Below, piece after piece: positions 10,300 through 23,171 of a stretch of 64,000 bases of DNA. The position numbers and the translations under genes were made by a program. Each line of letters begins with the position of its first letter. Position 1 is the stretch's first letter. Source of the stretch: Azoarcus sp. (GTDB taxonomy: Bacteria > Pseudomonadota > Gammaproteobacteria > Burkholderiales > Rhodocyclaceae); NCBI GenBank assembly GCA_030656215.1, contig JAUSOD010000091.1:104356-168355 (forward strand), read 5' to 3'. The notes beneath the pieces are model-generated. The model searched no databases. It worked only from the letters and a program-made list of their open reading frames with translations, and was not told the DNA's origin.

Positions 10300-10953
10300 A
10301 TGACGCACACGAACCCGATCCAGCGCCGCATCCGGATCATCGTGGCGGTGCTGCTTGCCATTGGCAGTACCGCCGCCACGGCCGGCGCACAGCAATACGA
10401 ACCCCTTGCCGCCAGCGTGCGCGCCGCGTTGCATCACGCCGTCAGTGACGCGGCCGCACCCGCACTGCCCATTCCGGATGCAGGCGAGCGTGCTCAGTGG
10501 CTGGGCGACATGTCACGCCGACTGGAGAAGCGCATTCCGGACCCGGCCTACCGCACCGAGTTGCTGACCTCGATCCACTACGAGGCCACGCGCGCCGGAC
10601 TGGATCCGCAACTGGTGCTCGGCCTGATCCAGGTCGAAAGCAACTTCCGCAAATACGCGATATCGTCGGCCGGCGCCCGTGGCTACATGCAGGTCATGCC
10701 CTTCTGGATCAAGGTGATCGGGCGCGAGGATGACAACCTCTTCCACCTCCGGACCAATCTGCGCTACGGCTGCACCATCCTGCGTCACTACCTGGATATC
10801 GAGAAAGGCGACCTGTTCCGCGCACTTGGCCGCTACAACGGCAGTCTGGGCAAGGCCGAATATCCGAACCTGGTGCGGACAGCCTGGGAACGCAACTGGC
10901 CGTGGGCGCCCGCACGCCTCGCCGCAGGCGAGAACGTGTCGAAACCCAACTGA
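10300..10953 (+). CDS. Lytic transglycosylase (SLT domain)
   Basis: LIQVESNF, GARGYMQVMP, ALGRYNG; N-terminal signal segment. Confidence 0.9.
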   Translation: MTHTNPIQRRIRIIVAVLLAIGSTAATAGAQQYEPLAASVRAALHHAVSDAAAPALPIPDAGERAQWLGDMSRRLEKRIPDPAYRTELLTSIHYEATRAGLDPQLVLGLIQVESNFRKYAISSAGARGYMQVMPFWIKVIGREDDNLFHLRTNLRYGCTILRHYLDIEKGDLFRALGRYNGSLGKAEYPNLVRTAWERNWPWAPARLAAGENVSKPN

Positions 10954-10986: not shown

Positions 10987-11598
10987 TCAGGCCGAAACCG
11001 CAGTCAGCGGCCGCACTTCCGACACGGGCATCTTCTCCGGGGTCCGCCGAACATCCTTGTCGGCTGAAGCCAGGGGCTGAACATCGCCCGACACCTCACC
11101 GCCTTCCTCGATCAGGATCCTGCCATAGCGGATCTTGCCGCTCACCCGCCCGGTAGCGTGGATGATCAGTTGCTGGCGCGCCGTCAGCTCGCCTTCGAAC
11201 ACCCCATGAATCTCGGCCACATCGATGCCGACCTTGCCACTGAATGCACCGGCCTCCGAGATCCGGATCACCCGGCTGTCCATCGTTGCCTCGACCCGAC
11301 CTTCAACTACCAGGGTATCGCAATCGAGGATCTCCGCCCCCTTGAGTTTGACGTGAGGGCCGACGATGAGGCTGCTGGCGCTGCCTGCAGCCTCGGTGAC
11401 CGGTGTATCGGTCACCTTGGGCTCCAGTGTCGCCGATACGGTGCCTGACGGCATGTCGGGCATTGGCGACAGCGTACCCGAAGCCATATTCGTTCCCGTG
11501 CCGCCAGTTGACCCGGGCGTGGTCAGCCCGGCAGGTCTGGAACTACGAGCAGCCGAGGGATCGGGGACTTTGGGGAACAGGTTGGGCTTGTTGAACAT
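10987..11598 (-). CDS. Bactofilin (polymer-forming cytoskeletal protein) with Pro/Thr/Gly-rich N-terminal extension
   Basis: Beta-helix repeats LVVEGRVEA, FSGKVGIDVAEIHGVFEGELTARQQLIIHATGRVSGKIRYGRILIEEGGEVSG; ATG at 11598 with CAGGAG SD. Confidence 0.9.
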   Translation of the reverse strand: MFNKPNLFPKVPDPSAARSSRPAGLTTPGSTGGTGTNMASGTLSPMPDMPSGTVSATLEPKVTDTPVTEAAGSASSLIVGPHVKLKGAEILDCDTLVVEGRVEATMDSRVIRISEAGAFSGKVGIDVAEIHGVFEGELTARQQLIIHATGRVSGKIRYGRILIEEGGEVSGDVQPLASADKDVRRTPEKMPVSEVRPLTAVSA

Positions 11599-11651
11599 GG
11601 CATCTCCTGAAGAATCCTGGTGCACCGGAATGAGGCACCAACGCCAACAGG

Positions 11652-11667
11652 AGCAAGGCGCGTACCC
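11652..11667 (-). promoter_or_regulatory. Sigma54 (-24/-12) promoter for the bactofilin gene
   Basis: Minus strand GGGTACGCGCCTTGCT has exact GG-N10-GC spacing with TTGC, about 55 bp upstream of the ATG. Confidence 0.7.
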
Positions 11668-11751
11668 GGCGCAATAAATCACATATAAAACAGTTACTTG
11701 AATATCATCATGCCGGATTCGAAGCCGATTTCCACGCGCATCGACGCCAAA

Positions 11752-11771
11752 CTGTCGCTTAACGGCGACAG
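11752..11771. promoter_or_regulatory. Enhancer site TGTC-N10-GACA (GlrR-type UAS)
   Basis: CTGTCGC-TTAACG-GCGACAG palindrome. Confidence 0.7.
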
Positions 11772-11819
11772 CTGCTTGCTCACTAAAGCACAAATCATTG
11801 CTGCAAATGCACTTCCCAT

Positions 11820-11837
11820 TGTCGTTGTATGGCAACA
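11820..11837. promoter_or_regulatory. Second enhancer site TGTC-N10-AACA (1 mismatch)
   Basis: TGTCGTTGTATGGCAACA. Confidence 0.5.
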
Positions 11838-11950
11838 CCTGCCAAACGAAACATCATTTTGCACTTGCTTACCAGGCATTCGAGGCATGCCCGCCTAAAC
11901 TGCTTTGGCACTGCCTACCCACCCTGCAACAGCACACCGACCGCGGCCAA

Positions 11951-13033
11951 ATGCATTTCGAACAAGCGCAGCACTTCGAACAAGCGTGTGACCACCTGAC
12001 TTCCCGGCATGCGCCGCAGCCCAGAACTGCTGCCCCGGCACGGGTTTCCGGCGCAACCGGAATACCCGCGCGAGCAGGTATCGTCAGCCGCAGCGAGGGC
12101 ATGCAGGCCGTGTTGAGAGACGCCAGCCTGCTGGCCAGTAGCGATGCGAGCGTGCTCATCCGGGGTGAGAGCGGTACCGGCAAAGAACTCCTCGCACGCT
12201 TCATCCATCAGGCCAGCCCGCGTGCCGCCGCCCCGTTCATCGCCATCAACTGCAGCGCCATCCCGGAAACCCTGCTCGAATCGGAACTCTTCGGCCACGT
12301 TCGCGGTGCGTTCAGCGGCGCAAGCAGCGCACATACAGGGCTGTTCGAGGCGGCTGACGGCGGTACCCTGTTCCTCGACGAAATTGGCGACATGCCGCCG
12401 CCCCTGCAAGCAAAGCTGCTGCGCGTACTACAGGAGCGAACCATCCGGGCGGTCGGCGCAACCAGCAGCCGCAGCGTCGACGTTCGCATCCTGTCGGCCA
12501 CCCATCACGACCTGATGGCGGCACTGGCGAGCGGCCGTTTTCGCGAGGATCTCTACTACCGGATCAATGTGGTCAGCCTGGTCCTGCCGCCGCTCAACGA
12601 ACGTCGCGAAGACATCCCCTTGCTTGCGCAACACTTCCTGAGCGGAATTACCCGACGCGATGGAAAACGTCTGCGGGGCTTTTCACCACAGGCCCTGCAG
12701 GCGCTGAGCCTGGCCGACTGGCCGGGAAACATCAGGGAGTTGCAGAACGTGGTCGAACAGGTCTGCGCCCTGTGCACCACGCCGCAGATCCCGCTTGCTC
12801 TGATCGAGCGCGCACTTCGGGTGGCACCGACCAGGCGCTTCAGCTATGCGGAAGCCAAGACGCGCTTTGAGCGCGACTACCTCACCCGACTGCTGATCAT
12901 GACCTCAGGGAACGTGTCCGAGGCGGCCCGGGTTGCCGAACGCAACCGCACCGAGTTCTACCGCTTGCTGCAGCGGCACGGTCTCGACCCCATTCTGTTT
13001 CGCAGCGACCGGAGCGATGACTCAGCCACCTGA
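11951..13033 (+). CDS. Sigma54-dependent activator, GlrR-like AAA+/Fis-HTH, lacking a receiver domain
   Basis: GESGTGKE, ESELFGHVRGAFSGA, FLDEIGDMP, FREDLYYR, WPGNIRELQN, and a C-terminal GNVSEAARVAERNRTEFYRLL typical of GlrR. Start uncertain (11951 chosen). Confidence 0.85.
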   Translation: MHFEQAQHFEQACDHLTSRHAPQPRTAAPARVSGATGIPARAGIVSRSEGMQAVLRDASLLASSDASVLIRGESGTGKELLARFIHQASPRAAAPFIAINCSAIPETLLESELFGHVRGAFSGASSAHTGLFEAADGGTLFLDEIGDMPPPLQAKLLRVLQERTIRAVGATSSRSVDVRILSATHHDLMAALASGRFREDLYYRINVVSLVLPPLNERREDIPLLAQHFLSGITRRDGKRLRGFSPQALQALSLADWPGNIRELQNVVEQVCALCTTPQIPLALIERALRVAPTRRFSYAEAKTRFERDYLTRLLIMTSGNVSEAARVAERNRTEFYRLLQRHGLDPILFRSDRSDDSAT

Positions 13034-20486: not shown

Positions 20487-23171
20487 ATGTCCCTCGATTC
20501 TGCCATGTTGCCAGATGTAATTCGCCATGCCGCCACGCTGTCGCGCTTTCTGCAGCGCATGCTCGACAGCCGGCCCTGGCTGGCGGCAAGCCTTGGCGCC
20601 AGTATCGACCGGGCAATCGATGCCGATGCGATGCGCAGCTTCATCGCCGAACACGGTGGAGATGAATCGCACCTGCGCCCGAGCCTGCGCAAACTGCGCA
20701 CCTGGGTGCTGTGCCACCTGATCGTGCGTGATCTCGCCGGCCGGGCCGATCTCACCGAAGTGACCGAAACCATGACGGTACTGGCCGAGGTCACTATCCG
20801 CCATGCTCACGACGTGCTGCGCGAAGGCCTGGTCCAGCGCCACGGATTGCCGCTGTCGGCCTCCGGCTGGGAACAGGAGCTACTGGTGATCGGCATGGGC
20901 AAACTCGGCGGCCGGGAGCTCAACGTCTCGTCCGACATCGACCTGATCTTTGTCTATCCGGAAGACGGTGACAGCGGCGGCAAGAAGGTAATCAGCAACT
21001 TCGAGTTCTTCGAACGGCTGGGCAAGCAGTTGATCCAGGCCCTGGCCGAGGTCACCGAGCACGGCCAGGTGTTCCGCGTCGACATGCGCCTGCGACCCAA
21101 TGGCGATTCGGGGCCGCTGGTGGCCAGCTTCGACATGCTGGAAAACTACTTCATCACCCAGGGTCGGGAGTGGGAGCGCTACGCCTGGATCAAGTCGCGC
21201 GTGCTGGCCGGCGAGCGCTGGCGCGAACTGGAGCAGATCGCCCGCCCCTTCGTGTTCCGCAAGTATCTGGACTTCGGCGCAATCAACGCGATGCGCGACC
21301 TGCACGCGCAGATCCGGCGCGAGGTGGCGCGTCGCGATCGCGCCCACAACATCAAGCTCGGCCCGGGTGGCATTCGCGAGATCGAGTTCATCGCCCAGGT
21401 GTTTCAACTGATCCGCGGCGGGCGCGACACCGATCTGCAGGTCCGCCCGACCCTGGCGGTGCTGGCCCGCCTTGCACACCGCGCCATCCTCTCGGCCGAA
21501 GCCGTCCGCGAGCTGAGCGATGCCTACACTTTCCTGCGCCGGCTCGAGCACCGCCTGCAATACCTGGACGACGCCCAGACCCACGACCTGCCCGAAACCG
21601 ATCGGGATCGTGAGTTGGTGGCGCGGGCGATGGGCTTCGACGACTACGCCAGCCTCATCGCCCGCCTCGACCACCATCGCGGCATCGTCAGCCAGCATTT
21701 CGACGCGGTCTTCGCCGATCCGAACGAAGAGGACCATACGCTCGACACCGTGTGGGAAATGGCCGAAGACGTCGAGCACGCCACGCCTGTGCTGGCCGAG
21801 TTGGGTTACCGCGATCCGTCTGCTGCCGCGGCGCGGCTGGCCACGATACGCACCGGCTCGCGTTACCAGCAAATGCCCAACCACATCCGCAGCCGCCTGG
21901 ACGCCCTGATGCCACGCGTCATAGCCGCAGCGGCAGCCACTACCGGCGCGGATGAAACCCTGTCGCGCTGCCTCGACCTGCTCGACAGCATCAGCCGCCG
22001 CGGCTCTTATCTCGCCCTGTTGCAACAGTACCCGCAAGCCCTGAACCGGGTGATCGACCTGATTCGTGCATCGGGCTGGGCCGCCGAGTATCTTGGCCGC
22101 CATCCGATCCTGCTCGATGAGCTGCTCGACGGCCGCGACCTGGAGGCGGCACCAAACTGGGGGCACTTCCGCACCGAACTCGCCACCCAGCTCGACGCCA
22201 TCGAGCCGGATATGGAGCGACAGATGGACCTGATGCGCGAGCAGCATCACACCCAGTCCTTCCGCCTGCTGACCCAGGACATTGCCGGCCTGCTCTCGGT
22301 GGAAAAACTCGCGGACAATCTGTCGGAACTTGCCGACATCATGGTCGCGCTCACCATTCCGCTGTGCTGGCGCAAGATCAAGATCCGCCATCGCGAAACA
22401 CCGCAGTTTGCAGTGATCAGCTACGGCAAACTCGGAGGCAAGGAGCTTGGCTACGCATCGGACCTCGACATCATCTTTCTGTACGACGACGATGCGCCCG
22501 AGGCCGCCGAGGTCTATACCCGCCTCGGCCAGCGCACCAATACCTGGCTGTCGAGCCAGACCGCAGCCGGCATCCTGTTCGAGACCGACCTGCGCCTGCG
22601 TCCCAACGGTGATTCCGGGTTGATTGCCTGCTCGCTGGAAGCCTTCCGCAAGTATCAGCTCGAGTCCGCCTGGGTATGGGAACACCAGGCCCTGACCCGT
22701 GCCCGCTTCAGCGCCGGCGACCCGGCACTGGGCGCGGCATTCGAGCGCATCCGCTGCGAAGTGCTGCGCCTGCCGCGCGAGATCGACACCTTGCGCACCG
22801 AGGTGCTGACGATGCGCGACAAGATGCGCAGCGCTCACGCCGGCAAGAGCAGCCTGTTCGACCTCAAGCACGACAGTGGCGGTCTGGTCGATGTCGAATT
22901 CCTGATCCAGTACCTGGTGCTCGGTCATTCCCACGCACACCCGGAGCTGACCGGCAACCTGGGCAACATCGCATTGCTCAGGATCGCTGGCGAACTCGGG
23001 CTGATTCCAGCCGATCTCGCACTCGCCTGTGGCGACAGCTACCGCCAGCTACGCCACCTGCAGCATCGCCAACGCCTCAATGGCCAGCCCTCGCGGGTGG
23101 CACCCGAGGAGGTGGAACGCGCACGTGCACCGGTGCAGACGCTGTGGCAGCGGGTCTTTGGCACCGACTGA
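20487..23171 (+). CDS. glnE: Bifunctional glutamine synthetase adenylyltransferase/adenylyl-removase
   Basis: Two NTase halves: MGKLGGRELNVSSDIDL...RLRPNG and YGKLGGKELGYASDLD. Start approximate. Confidence 0.96.
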   Translation: MSLDSAMLPDVIRHAATLSRFLQRMLDSRPWLAASLGASIDRAIDADAMRSFIAEHGGDESHLRPSLRKLRTWVLCHLIVRDLAGRADLTEVTETMTVLAEVTIRHAHDVLREGLVQRHGLPLSASGWEQELLVIGMGKLGGRELNVSSDIDLIFVYPEDGDSGGKKVISNFEFFERLGKQLIQALAEVTEHGQVFRVDMRLRPNGDSGPLVASFDMLENYFITQGREWERYAWIKSRVLAGERWRELEQIARPFVFRKYLDFGAINAMRDLHAQIRREVARRDRAHNIKLGPGGIREIEFIAQVFQLIRGGRDTDLQVRPTLAVLARLAHRAILSAEAVRELSDAYTFLRRLEHRLQYLDDAQTHDLPETDRDRELVARAMGFDDYASLIARLDHHRGIVSQHFDAVFADPNEEDHTLDTVWEMAEDVEHATPVLAELGYRDPSAAAARLATIRTGSRYQQMPNHIRSRLDALMPRVIAAAAATTGADETLSRCLDLLDSISRRGSYLALLQQYPQALNRVIDLIRASGWAAEYLGRHPILLDELLDGRDLEAAPNWGHFRTELATQLDAIEPDMERQMDLMREQHHTQSFRLLTQDIAGLLSVEKLADNLSELADIMVALTIPLCWRKIKIRHRETPQFAVISYGKLGGKELGYASDLDIIFLYDDDAPEAAEVYTRLGQRTNTWLSSQTAAGILFETDLRLRPNGDSGLIACSLEAFRKYQLESAWVWEHQALTRARFSAGDPALGAAFERIRCEVLRLPREIDTLRTEVLTMRDKMRSAHAGKSSLFDLKHDSGGLVDVEFLIQYLVLGHSHAHPELTGNLGNIALLRIAGELGLIPADLALACGDSYRQLRHLQHRQRLNGQPSRVAPEEVERARAPVQTLWQRVFGTD

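Follow-up and report, generated by a model that had tools for sequence, protein, structure and literature searches.

In a 64,000-nucleotide stretch of an Azoarcus sp. genome (contig JAUSOD010000091.1 of GenBank assembly GCA_030656215.1, positions 104,356 to 168,355; hereafter the window), a bactofilin gene diverges from a gene encoding a sigma-54 activator of the GlrR (QseF) type. We conclude that this activator, a receiver-independent descendant of GlrR that resembles PspF in architecture, most probably activates sigma-54-dependent transcription of the bactofilin gene. The features that carry this reading are listed below, with helix-turn-helix abbreviated as HTH, integration host factor as IHF and upstream activator sequence as UAS.

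10987-11598, minus strand: bactofilin coding sequence (CDS), 203 amino acids, with its ATG at 11598
11652-11667, minus strand: sigma-54 promoter GGGTACGCGCCTTGCT, with GG at 11665-11666, GC at 11653-11654 and N10 between them
11683-11708, no strand: AT-rich, IHF-like tract between UAS1 and the promoter
11753-11770, no strand: UAS1, the proximal enhancer site TGTCGCTTAACGGCGACA, a perfect match to TGTCN10GACA at -172 from the bactofilin ATG
11820-11837, no strand: UAS2, the distal enhancer site TGTCGTTGTATGGCAACA, with one half-site mismatch, at -239 from the bactofilin ATG
11951-13033, plus strand: GlrR-derived sigma-54 activator of 360 amino acids without a receiver, defined by Pfam, NCBIfam and comparison of start codons

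Predicted promoter and enhancer sites of the bactofilin gene

The product of the minus-strand gene is recognized as a bactofilin by Pfam (PF04519, 61.8 bits against a cut-off of 27.9, residues 78-173), and rpoN is present in the same genome. A sequence-only reading of the window had placed a GG-N10-GC promoter at 11652-11667, an IHF-like AT-rich tract at about 11683-11708, and TGTC-N10-GACA and TGTC-N10-AACA palindromes at 11753-11770 and 11820-11837. All four were recovered at these positions, and comparison with relatives indicated that the -24/-12 element is conserved at a matching offset, the palindromes as half-sites and the tract through its core. From the window alone, the promoter is not significant, as GGYAY-N5-TTGCW has a single match in the 64 kb, exactly at 11652-11667, and about one is expected by chance. 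The enhancer motif gave a different picture, with 7 strand matches to TGTCG-N8-CRACA (4 distinct sites) against 0.45 expected and none of 100 shuffles reaching 7; three of the four distinct sites fall within 11454-11837. UAS1 and UAS2 lie 67 bp apart, their centres about 96 and 163 bp ahead of the -24 element.

At glmY, the GlrR site has been defined by experiment as TGTCN10GACA, so that the earlier attribution of these palindromes agrees with the published consensus (PMC3045617). A weak third candidate proposed at 11729-11746 (TTTC...GACG) did not hold up, since it carries two mismatches and its sequence is not conserved. The AT-rich tract matches 7 of the 9 specified positions of WATCAANNNNTTR, which makes it, by resemblance only, a candidate IHF site; its CA-N(6)-TG core and its AT-richness are conserved across genera.

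The arrangement is shared by related bactofilin loci

One genome per species was scanned, and the best 80 of 321 bactofilin relatives were kept, from Azoarcus, Thauera, Aromatoleum, Denitromonas, Methyloversatilis, Pseudothauera and others. In 61 of these 80 loci, the bactofilin gene diverges from an operon encoding a histidine kinase, a lipoprotein and a full-length regulator with receiver, AAA+ and HTH domains; 60 of the 61 have the sigma-54 element and all have at least one site. The other 19 comprise four loci with a regulator but no kinase, four with a receiverless regulator or a degenerate receiver, five on contigs too short to tell, all of which carry both promoter and site elements, and six that are regulator-free. 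Altogether, at least one YGTCG-N8-CGACR site was present in all 74 loci that are not regulator-free and a clear GG-N10-GC element of the TGGCAY-N5-TTGC type in 73 of them.

Positions are conserved as well. Wherever a GlrR-type gene is present, a -24/-12 element lies 51-83 nt before the bactofilin ATG, with a weaker match at one locus; in related loci, it reads TGGCAY-N5-TTGC near -70 (TGGCAT-N5-TTGC in Parazoarcus communis). The sites of relatives are found near -240 and -173 from the ATG. The conservation of motif spacing, which the sequence-only reading had proposed as a check, proved to be high, with the layout found in 74 of the 80 loci and the two sites 65-69 bp apart in 54 of them (mode, 67 bp). 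Furthermore, an alignment of the spacers of six species of the genus revealed islands of identity amid a variable background, namely the -12/-24 element, both palindromes, a block between them, a 26-nt block and CCTAAACT. Within the palindromes, the half-sites are conserved and their spacers variable, in the six species as well as across genera.

Conversely, the six regulator-free loci have neither the sigma-54 promoter nor the sites. They look like one clade and thus probably represent a single loss event, in which the bactofilin gene probably moved to other control. In these loci (L068, L072, L073, L081, L084 and L091), pmbA abuts the bactofilin gene.

The association does not depend on divergent gene order. 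In genome G019, from another genus, the bactofilin gene follows the full operon in tandem, on one strand; ahead of it are two perfect TGTCGC-N6-GCGACA sites, together with an AT-rich tract and TGGCAC-N5-CTGCA. In five genomes, two of the same family and three of other families of the order, the bactofilin gene is either unlinked to the GlrR-type gene or found on another contig, and each bactofilin gene keeps the promoter and at least one site, indicating that the regulatory link is independent of adjacency. These observations strongly support the view that a GlrR-type enhancer and a sigma-54 promoter would drive the bactofilin gene. The earlier claim to that effect is thus upheld by 74 of 80 loci and by the joint loss in six; the arrangement is not special to the window but ancestral.

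The window activator is a receiverless GlrR descendant

Pfam recognized Sigma54_activat (PF00158, 237 bits) and AAA_lid_14 in the activator, as in sigma-54 enhancer-binding proteins (AAA+ clade 6), and gave no Response_reg match even with the longest open frame. The best NCBIfam model was GlrR (NF011695), with a lead of about 90 bits and a score of 421 bits against a cut-off of 763, covering positions 133-443 of 445; the PspF model scored 247 bits. The protein consists of a short unconserved N-terminal tail, an AAA+ domain (GESGTGKE, GAFSGA, DE, FREDLYYR, GNIRELQN) and the HTH AARVAERNRTEFYRLLQRH, which is conserved in all orthologues. The earlier description of the adjacent activator as GlrR-like, HTH included, therefore stands, with GlrR the best model through the HTH. 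Its assignment to a GlrR circuit holds for descent, with the amendment that the regulator is receiverless, carries GAFSGA and falls short of the equivalog cut-off (421 vs 763 bits). Without a receiver and with GAFSGA, it is not a two-component response regulator.

The sole start codon placed consistently in the six species is an ATG located 56-71 codons before Walker A, which yields proteins of 343-360 amino acids and sets the window start at ATG 11951 and the spacer, from the bactofilin ATG to the activator ATG, at 352 bp. A longer open reading frame (ORF) from TTG 11798 or ATG 11807 was rejected because upstream stops in two of the relatives (L002 and L003) leave at most 92 amino acids before Walker A, without room for a receiver, and because the conserved blocks in this region show no codon periodicity.

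All six species retain Walker A, Walker B, the arginine-finger region and sensor II intact. Pairwise ratios of nonsynonymous to synonymous substitution rates (dN/dS) were, as rough values, 0.07-0.19 among receiverless activators and 0.09-0.26 in full-length orthologues. Every receiverless copy has GAFSGA and every full-length relative has GAFTGA; GAFSGA is listed among the variants compatible with activation and occurs in enhancer-binding proteins with predicted regulons (PMC4641369). The other five species (G001-G005) have no second GlrR-type gene, their next-best matches being at most 53% identical. Intact motifs, low dN/dS, the lack of a second GlrR-type gene and the retention of sites and promoter together indicate that the receiverless protein works, and we conclude from this comparison that it is a working activator. 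In E. coli, GlrR D56A lowers glmY expression two-fold only and keeps half of the activity (PMC3045617).

Probable reduction in place of an ancestral three-gene system

In G019, the GlrR model covers the full-length regulator from one end to the other with 626 bits, again below the 763 cut-off (next, NtrC at 405 bits). The kinase of a second system in the window's genome (see below) aligns over its full length with E. coli QseE (E 8e-67; next, CpxA at 1.6e-20) in chain C of PDB 9M08, the cryo-electron microscopy entry of QseG-QseE. The lipoprotein of relatives had no match in Pfam, NCBIfam or PDB sequences and no detectable similarity to QseG, so that only its position corresponds to QseG and we did not retain that identification.

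The genes for the kinase and the lipoprotein, both present in the 61 related loci, are absent from the window and from the bactofilin loci of the genus. The six receiverless proteins group together in a tree of the AAA+-HTH part, as a single clade (99% support in the Shimodaira-Hasegawa-like approximate likelihood ratio test, SH-aLRT) that is nested inside the bactofilin-linked regulators on a stem of 0.43 changes per site. Full and reduced loci alike are flanked by pmbA and by SLT-proS, and they share the elements of the spacer. The gene start also corresponds, through the following element:

11894-11901, plus strand: CCTAAACT, a -10-like element (TAAACT) for the regulator gene, with a putative promoter function

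This element is conserved as CCTAnACT before the kinase start codon in full operons and before the truncated activator in the window; the activator ATG lies 49 nt after TAAACT, and the kinase ATG 45 nt after it in full operons of Thauera. We infer that it is a -10-like element inherited by the regulator gene from the kinase-gene promoter.

Taken together, these comparisons indicate that the bactofilin/GlrR/sigma-54 wiring is ancestral in the order (Azoarcus/Thauera/Aromatoleum group). On the simplest reading, the form found in the genus would have arisen by an in-place deletion that took out the genes for the kinase and the lipoprotein together with the part of the regulator gene that codes for the receiver, leaving the promoter and start position of the kinase gene fused to the regulator linker. 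Orphan regulators without a kinase were also observed at L103 (Pseudothauera lacus), L045, L057, L062 and L082. The Pseudothauera group has an orphan regulator with a diverged receiver, which in P. lacus lacks the usual acidic pocket pattern and is under relaxed constraint (dN/dS 0.41-0.57). From these sequences, the Pseudothauera orphan regulators look like an intermediate stage of input loss.

A second GlrR-type system in the same genome

Another contig of the window's genome (C106) encodes a QseE-like kinase and a lipoprotein together with a full-length regulator, which shares 70% identity with the window activator and groups in the tree with the bactofilin-linked regulators of Aromatoleum. 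At L031:4063-4624, this system adjoins a gene for a 105-residue exported EF-hand protein, which is preceded by TGGCACGCCGCTTGC and by two GlrR-type sites exactly 67 bp apart, in the same layout as at the bactofilin gene. In the whole genome, a 67-bp site pair combined with a strong -24/-12 element was found only at the bactofilin and EF-hand promoters, both of which adjoin GlrR-type genes. As the two HTHs are nearly identical, the two systems could cross-talk in this strain. A long perfect inverted repeat, GGCTGAAACAGCTGTCGC...GCGACAGCTGTTTCAGCC, was also observed upstream of the enhancer of the EF-hand gene (L031:3921-3980); it looks like a terminator that embeds GlrR-like half-sites at non-canonical spacing.

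Proposed mechanism and alternative explanations

We propose that the GlrR/QseF-type enhancer-binding protein would bind the two TGTCG-N8-CGACA palindromes, that the DNA between them and the promoter would be bent at the AT-rich, IHF-like tract, and that the AAA+ ring of the activator would then open the sigma-54 promoter at 11652-11667, with transcription beginning near 11641, 43 nt ahead of the bactofilin ATG. The shortened activator would not need phosphorylation, like PspF and HrpR/S, whose architecture it shares, so that bactofilin expression may now be set by the amount of activator or by a partner acting in trans rather than by a periplasmic signal. In this genome only, the second full-length GlrK-lipoprotein-GlrR system could act on the same sites. 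It is also conceivable, by analogy with PspA acting on PspF and with the B. subtilis bactofilins acting on BacR, that the bactofilin, free or membrane-bound, binds the AAA+-HTH protein and switches the activator off. We regard such feedback as very unlikely; if true, it would make the assembly state of the scaffold the signal for its own sigma-54 promoter.

Several points weigh against activation of the bactofilin gene by the receiverless protein. The -24 element of the window is GGGTAC instead of TGGCAC and UAS2 has a half-site mismatch, which may make for a weak promoter. Because the related genomes are kin, the locus counts stand for fewer independent events than they suggest. Saturation of dS (>1) in many pairs makes the dN/dS values rough, and the long stem branch (0.43) together with the change from GAFTGA to GAFSGA could mean an altered function. 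In addition, a GlrR-type AAA+ domain may or may not assemble in the absence of its receiver: enteric NtrC needs its receiver; DctD and NtrC1 do not.

Some of the same observations could be taken to mean that the truncated activator is an inactive leftover and that the promoter either stays silent or, in this genome, responds to the full-length paralogue alone. The receiver and the kinase have been lost, the stem branch is long, GAFTGA is altered, and the paralogue, with its near-identical HTH, appears to drive the EF-hand gene through the same two-site layout. We find this explanation unlikely, since the frame and the ATPase motifs are intact in six species with dN/dS (0.07-0.19) matching the low values of full-length orthologues, the genus has kept the enhancer sites and promoter conserved, and none of the other five species has a second GlrR-type gene; moreover, true loss of the regulator goes with loss of the sites and the promoter. 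It is highly improbable that the receiverless protein is mainly a brake, acting through unproductive occupancy of the sites or through poisoned mixed rings with the paralogue. Such a role would fit GAFSGA, which takes the place of the sigma-54 contact motif in all receiverless copies but in none of the full-length ones, as well as the extra site downstream of the promoter, inside the CDS. Yet a repressor would not need a conserved Walker A/B, arginine finger and sensor II under purifying selection, GAFSGA is listed as compatible with activation (PMC4641369), and a sigma-54 promoter has nothing to repress without an activator, whereas five species have no other GlrR-type protein.

The probability that the motifs are chance matches, and that the bactofilin gene is transcribed from an ordinary sigma-70 promoter, is next to negligible. 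Such matches are common enough, with one sigma-54-like match expected per 64 kb and with 92 YGTCG-N8-CGACR sites and 1138 loose -24/-12 matches in the whole genome. However, chance cannot explain the conservation in position of three elements in about 74 loci or their joint loss in six, and the 67-bp pair with a strong -24/-12 element occurs at two places of the genome only, both beside GlrR-type genes.

Other features of the bactofilin locus

The remaining features of the spacer and of the bactofilin gene are as follows.

11454-11471, no strand: perfect palindrome TGTCGGGCATTGGCGACA in the linker-coding region of the bactofilin gene, at about +181 from the predicted start site
11599-11641, minus strand: predicted 5' untranslated region (UTR) of 43 nt with a GC-rich hairpin at its start, the +1 inferred from the -12 GC
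11603-11608, minus strand: Shine-Dalgarno sequence AGGAGA of the bactofilin gene, read from the sequence
11798-11817, no strand: genus-conserved block TTGCTGCAAATGCACTTCCC between the enhancer sites, holding a second IHF-like core (CA-N4-TT)
11859-11873, plus strand: 15-mer TTGCACTTGCTTACC, conserved family-wide and extending within the genus to 11848-11873 (26 nt)

The bactofilin protein has an MFNKPNLFPK N-terminus, a variable linker and a strongly conserved core, and among orthologues the core is near-invariant and MFNK is invariant. MFNKPNLFPK carries M1, F2 and K4 of the membrane-targeting peptide motif, which predicts membrane binding; this peptide is MFSKQAKS in Caulobacter BacA, with the global consensus MFSKKKK (PMC12448750). 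The Shine-Dalgarno sequence claimed for this gene is borne out, as AAGGAGA is invariant upstream of the bactofilin gene across the compared loci. The predicted +1 near 11641 follows from the position of the -12 GC at 11653-11654. GC-rich hairpins of differing sequence occur in the 5' UTR of most loci (window 11599-11641 and the same region of L032-L111), and they scored no better than shuffled controls (z from -2.0 to +0.2). RNAalifold gave no consensus fold for the bactofilin 5' UTRs, and we make no claim of a conserved hairpin. Rfam scans of the bactofilin locus and of the paralogue's locus returned nothing real.

The palindrome at 11454-11471 was not part of the sequence-only reading. A perfect intragenic site lies at +125 to +137 from the ATG in all sampled receiverless genomes and in the Methyloversatilis clade; its spacers vary, the surrounding linker is unalignable, and control CDS stretches also yield shared matches. 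It is a candidate for a downstream, third activator site, or may be a by-product of an LSxxxD peptide. A fourth TGTCG-N8-CGACA palindrome, at 22321-22338 inside an ORF of 969 amino acids and in promoter-less surroundings, is probably a chance match.

The 15-mer at 11859-11873 recurs as GTAAGCAAnTGCAA in all but one of 25 aligned loci (24 of 25), which span many genera, and it probably belongs to the control region of the regulator operon. It was rejected as a sigma-70 -35 box, lying 25-31 nt from TAAACT at the wrong spacing, and as a sigma-54 element, since its GG-N9-GC on the other strand is also wrongly spaced. The block at 11798-11817 recalls E. coli glmY, where IHF-like sites flank a GlrR site (PMC3045617).

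A gene for an SLT-domain lytic transglycosylase (10300-10953) is convergent with the bactofilin gene. With proS, it still adjoins the bactofilin gene in most related loci, which makes a functional link of the bactofilin to cell-wall remodelling possible.

Implications and comparison with known systems

The sequence-only reading had held sigma-54 and GlrR control of a bactofilin to be undescribed, and our literature search likewise found no paper connecting bactofilins with sigma-54/RpoN as regulators or with GlrR, QseF, GlrK or QseE. Bactofilin gene regulation is little known, the only dedicated regulator found in that search being BacR of B. subtilis (2026), and the outputs of QseE/QseG/QseF (GlrK/GlrR) beyond enterobacteria are essentially unknown. 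Across the whole order, the local target of the sensor would be a bactofilin predicted to bind membranes, which suggests that the scaffold is deployed on an envelope signal. This link to envelope sensing would point to a role in envelope stress at least as much as to the cell shape or polar scaffolding proposed from the window alone. The related loci form a natural series, from the full three-component system through an orphan regulator with a decaying receiver and a receiverless regulator to nothing, and this series could show how a sigma-54 activator escapes its dependence on phosphorylation, including the change from GAFTGA to GAFSGA. These ideas are testable in culturable strains of Azoarcus, Aromatoleum and Thauera.

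Two regulators have been placed near bactofilin genes before. NtrYX of Rhodobacter sphaeroides is similar in that NtrX is an envelope regulator of the NtrC family with a chromatin immunoprecipitation (ChIP) peak at MepM/CcmA (bactofilin); unlike what we propose for the window, bactofilin expression was unchanged (log2 0.06), and neither a sigma-54 promoter nor GlrR-type sites are described there (PMC7240162). BacR (YhbD) of B. subtilis is also encoded beside bactofilin genes, whose expression it controls, has a link to cell-wall stress and was shown experimentally to be bound by bactofilins. In contrast to the window activator, BacR is a DUF4004 protein that acts in its own operon and is unrelated to sigma-54 activators (PMC13649987).

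The closest known counterpart of the control region is that of glmY (and of glmZ in Yersinia/Salmonella), with which it shares the TGTCN10GACA consensus. In Enterobacteriaceae, glmY/glmZ are controlled by GlrK(QseE)-QseG-GlrR(QseF), sigma-54 and IHF (PMC3045617; PMC6075780), and the glmY promoter needs IHF (PMC3045617). As at glmY, a -24/-12 promoter is preceded at a distance of 100-250 bp by several sites, with tracts that resemble IHF sites between; the bactofilin locus has two upstream sites, whereas glmY has three. GlrR is the closest family of the regulator, and relatives have the gene order kinase, lipoprotein, regulator, with a QseE homologue as the kinase. In contrast, the window has no kinase, lipoprotein or receiver, the lipoprotein of relatives has no detectable similarity to QseG, and the regulators remain below the GlrR equivalog cut-off (421 and 626 vs 763 bits). 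Moreover, the target is not a small RNA such as GlmY/GlmZ but a protein-coding bactofilin ORF of 203 amino acids, with no Rfam family at the locus.

PspF and HrpR/HrpS are group 4 enhancer-binding proteins, which have no regulatory domain and are regulated in trans (PMC7175178). The window activator, which consists of AAA+ and HTH domains only, resembles them in architecture; unlike PspF, it falls in the tree inside the GlrR-type response regulators and is not related to PspF by descent. The organization of the locus is nevertheless that of pspF-pspA, with an activator gene divergent from its predicted sigma-54 target, enhancers in the shared spacer and a target product that would be a membrane-binding polymer.

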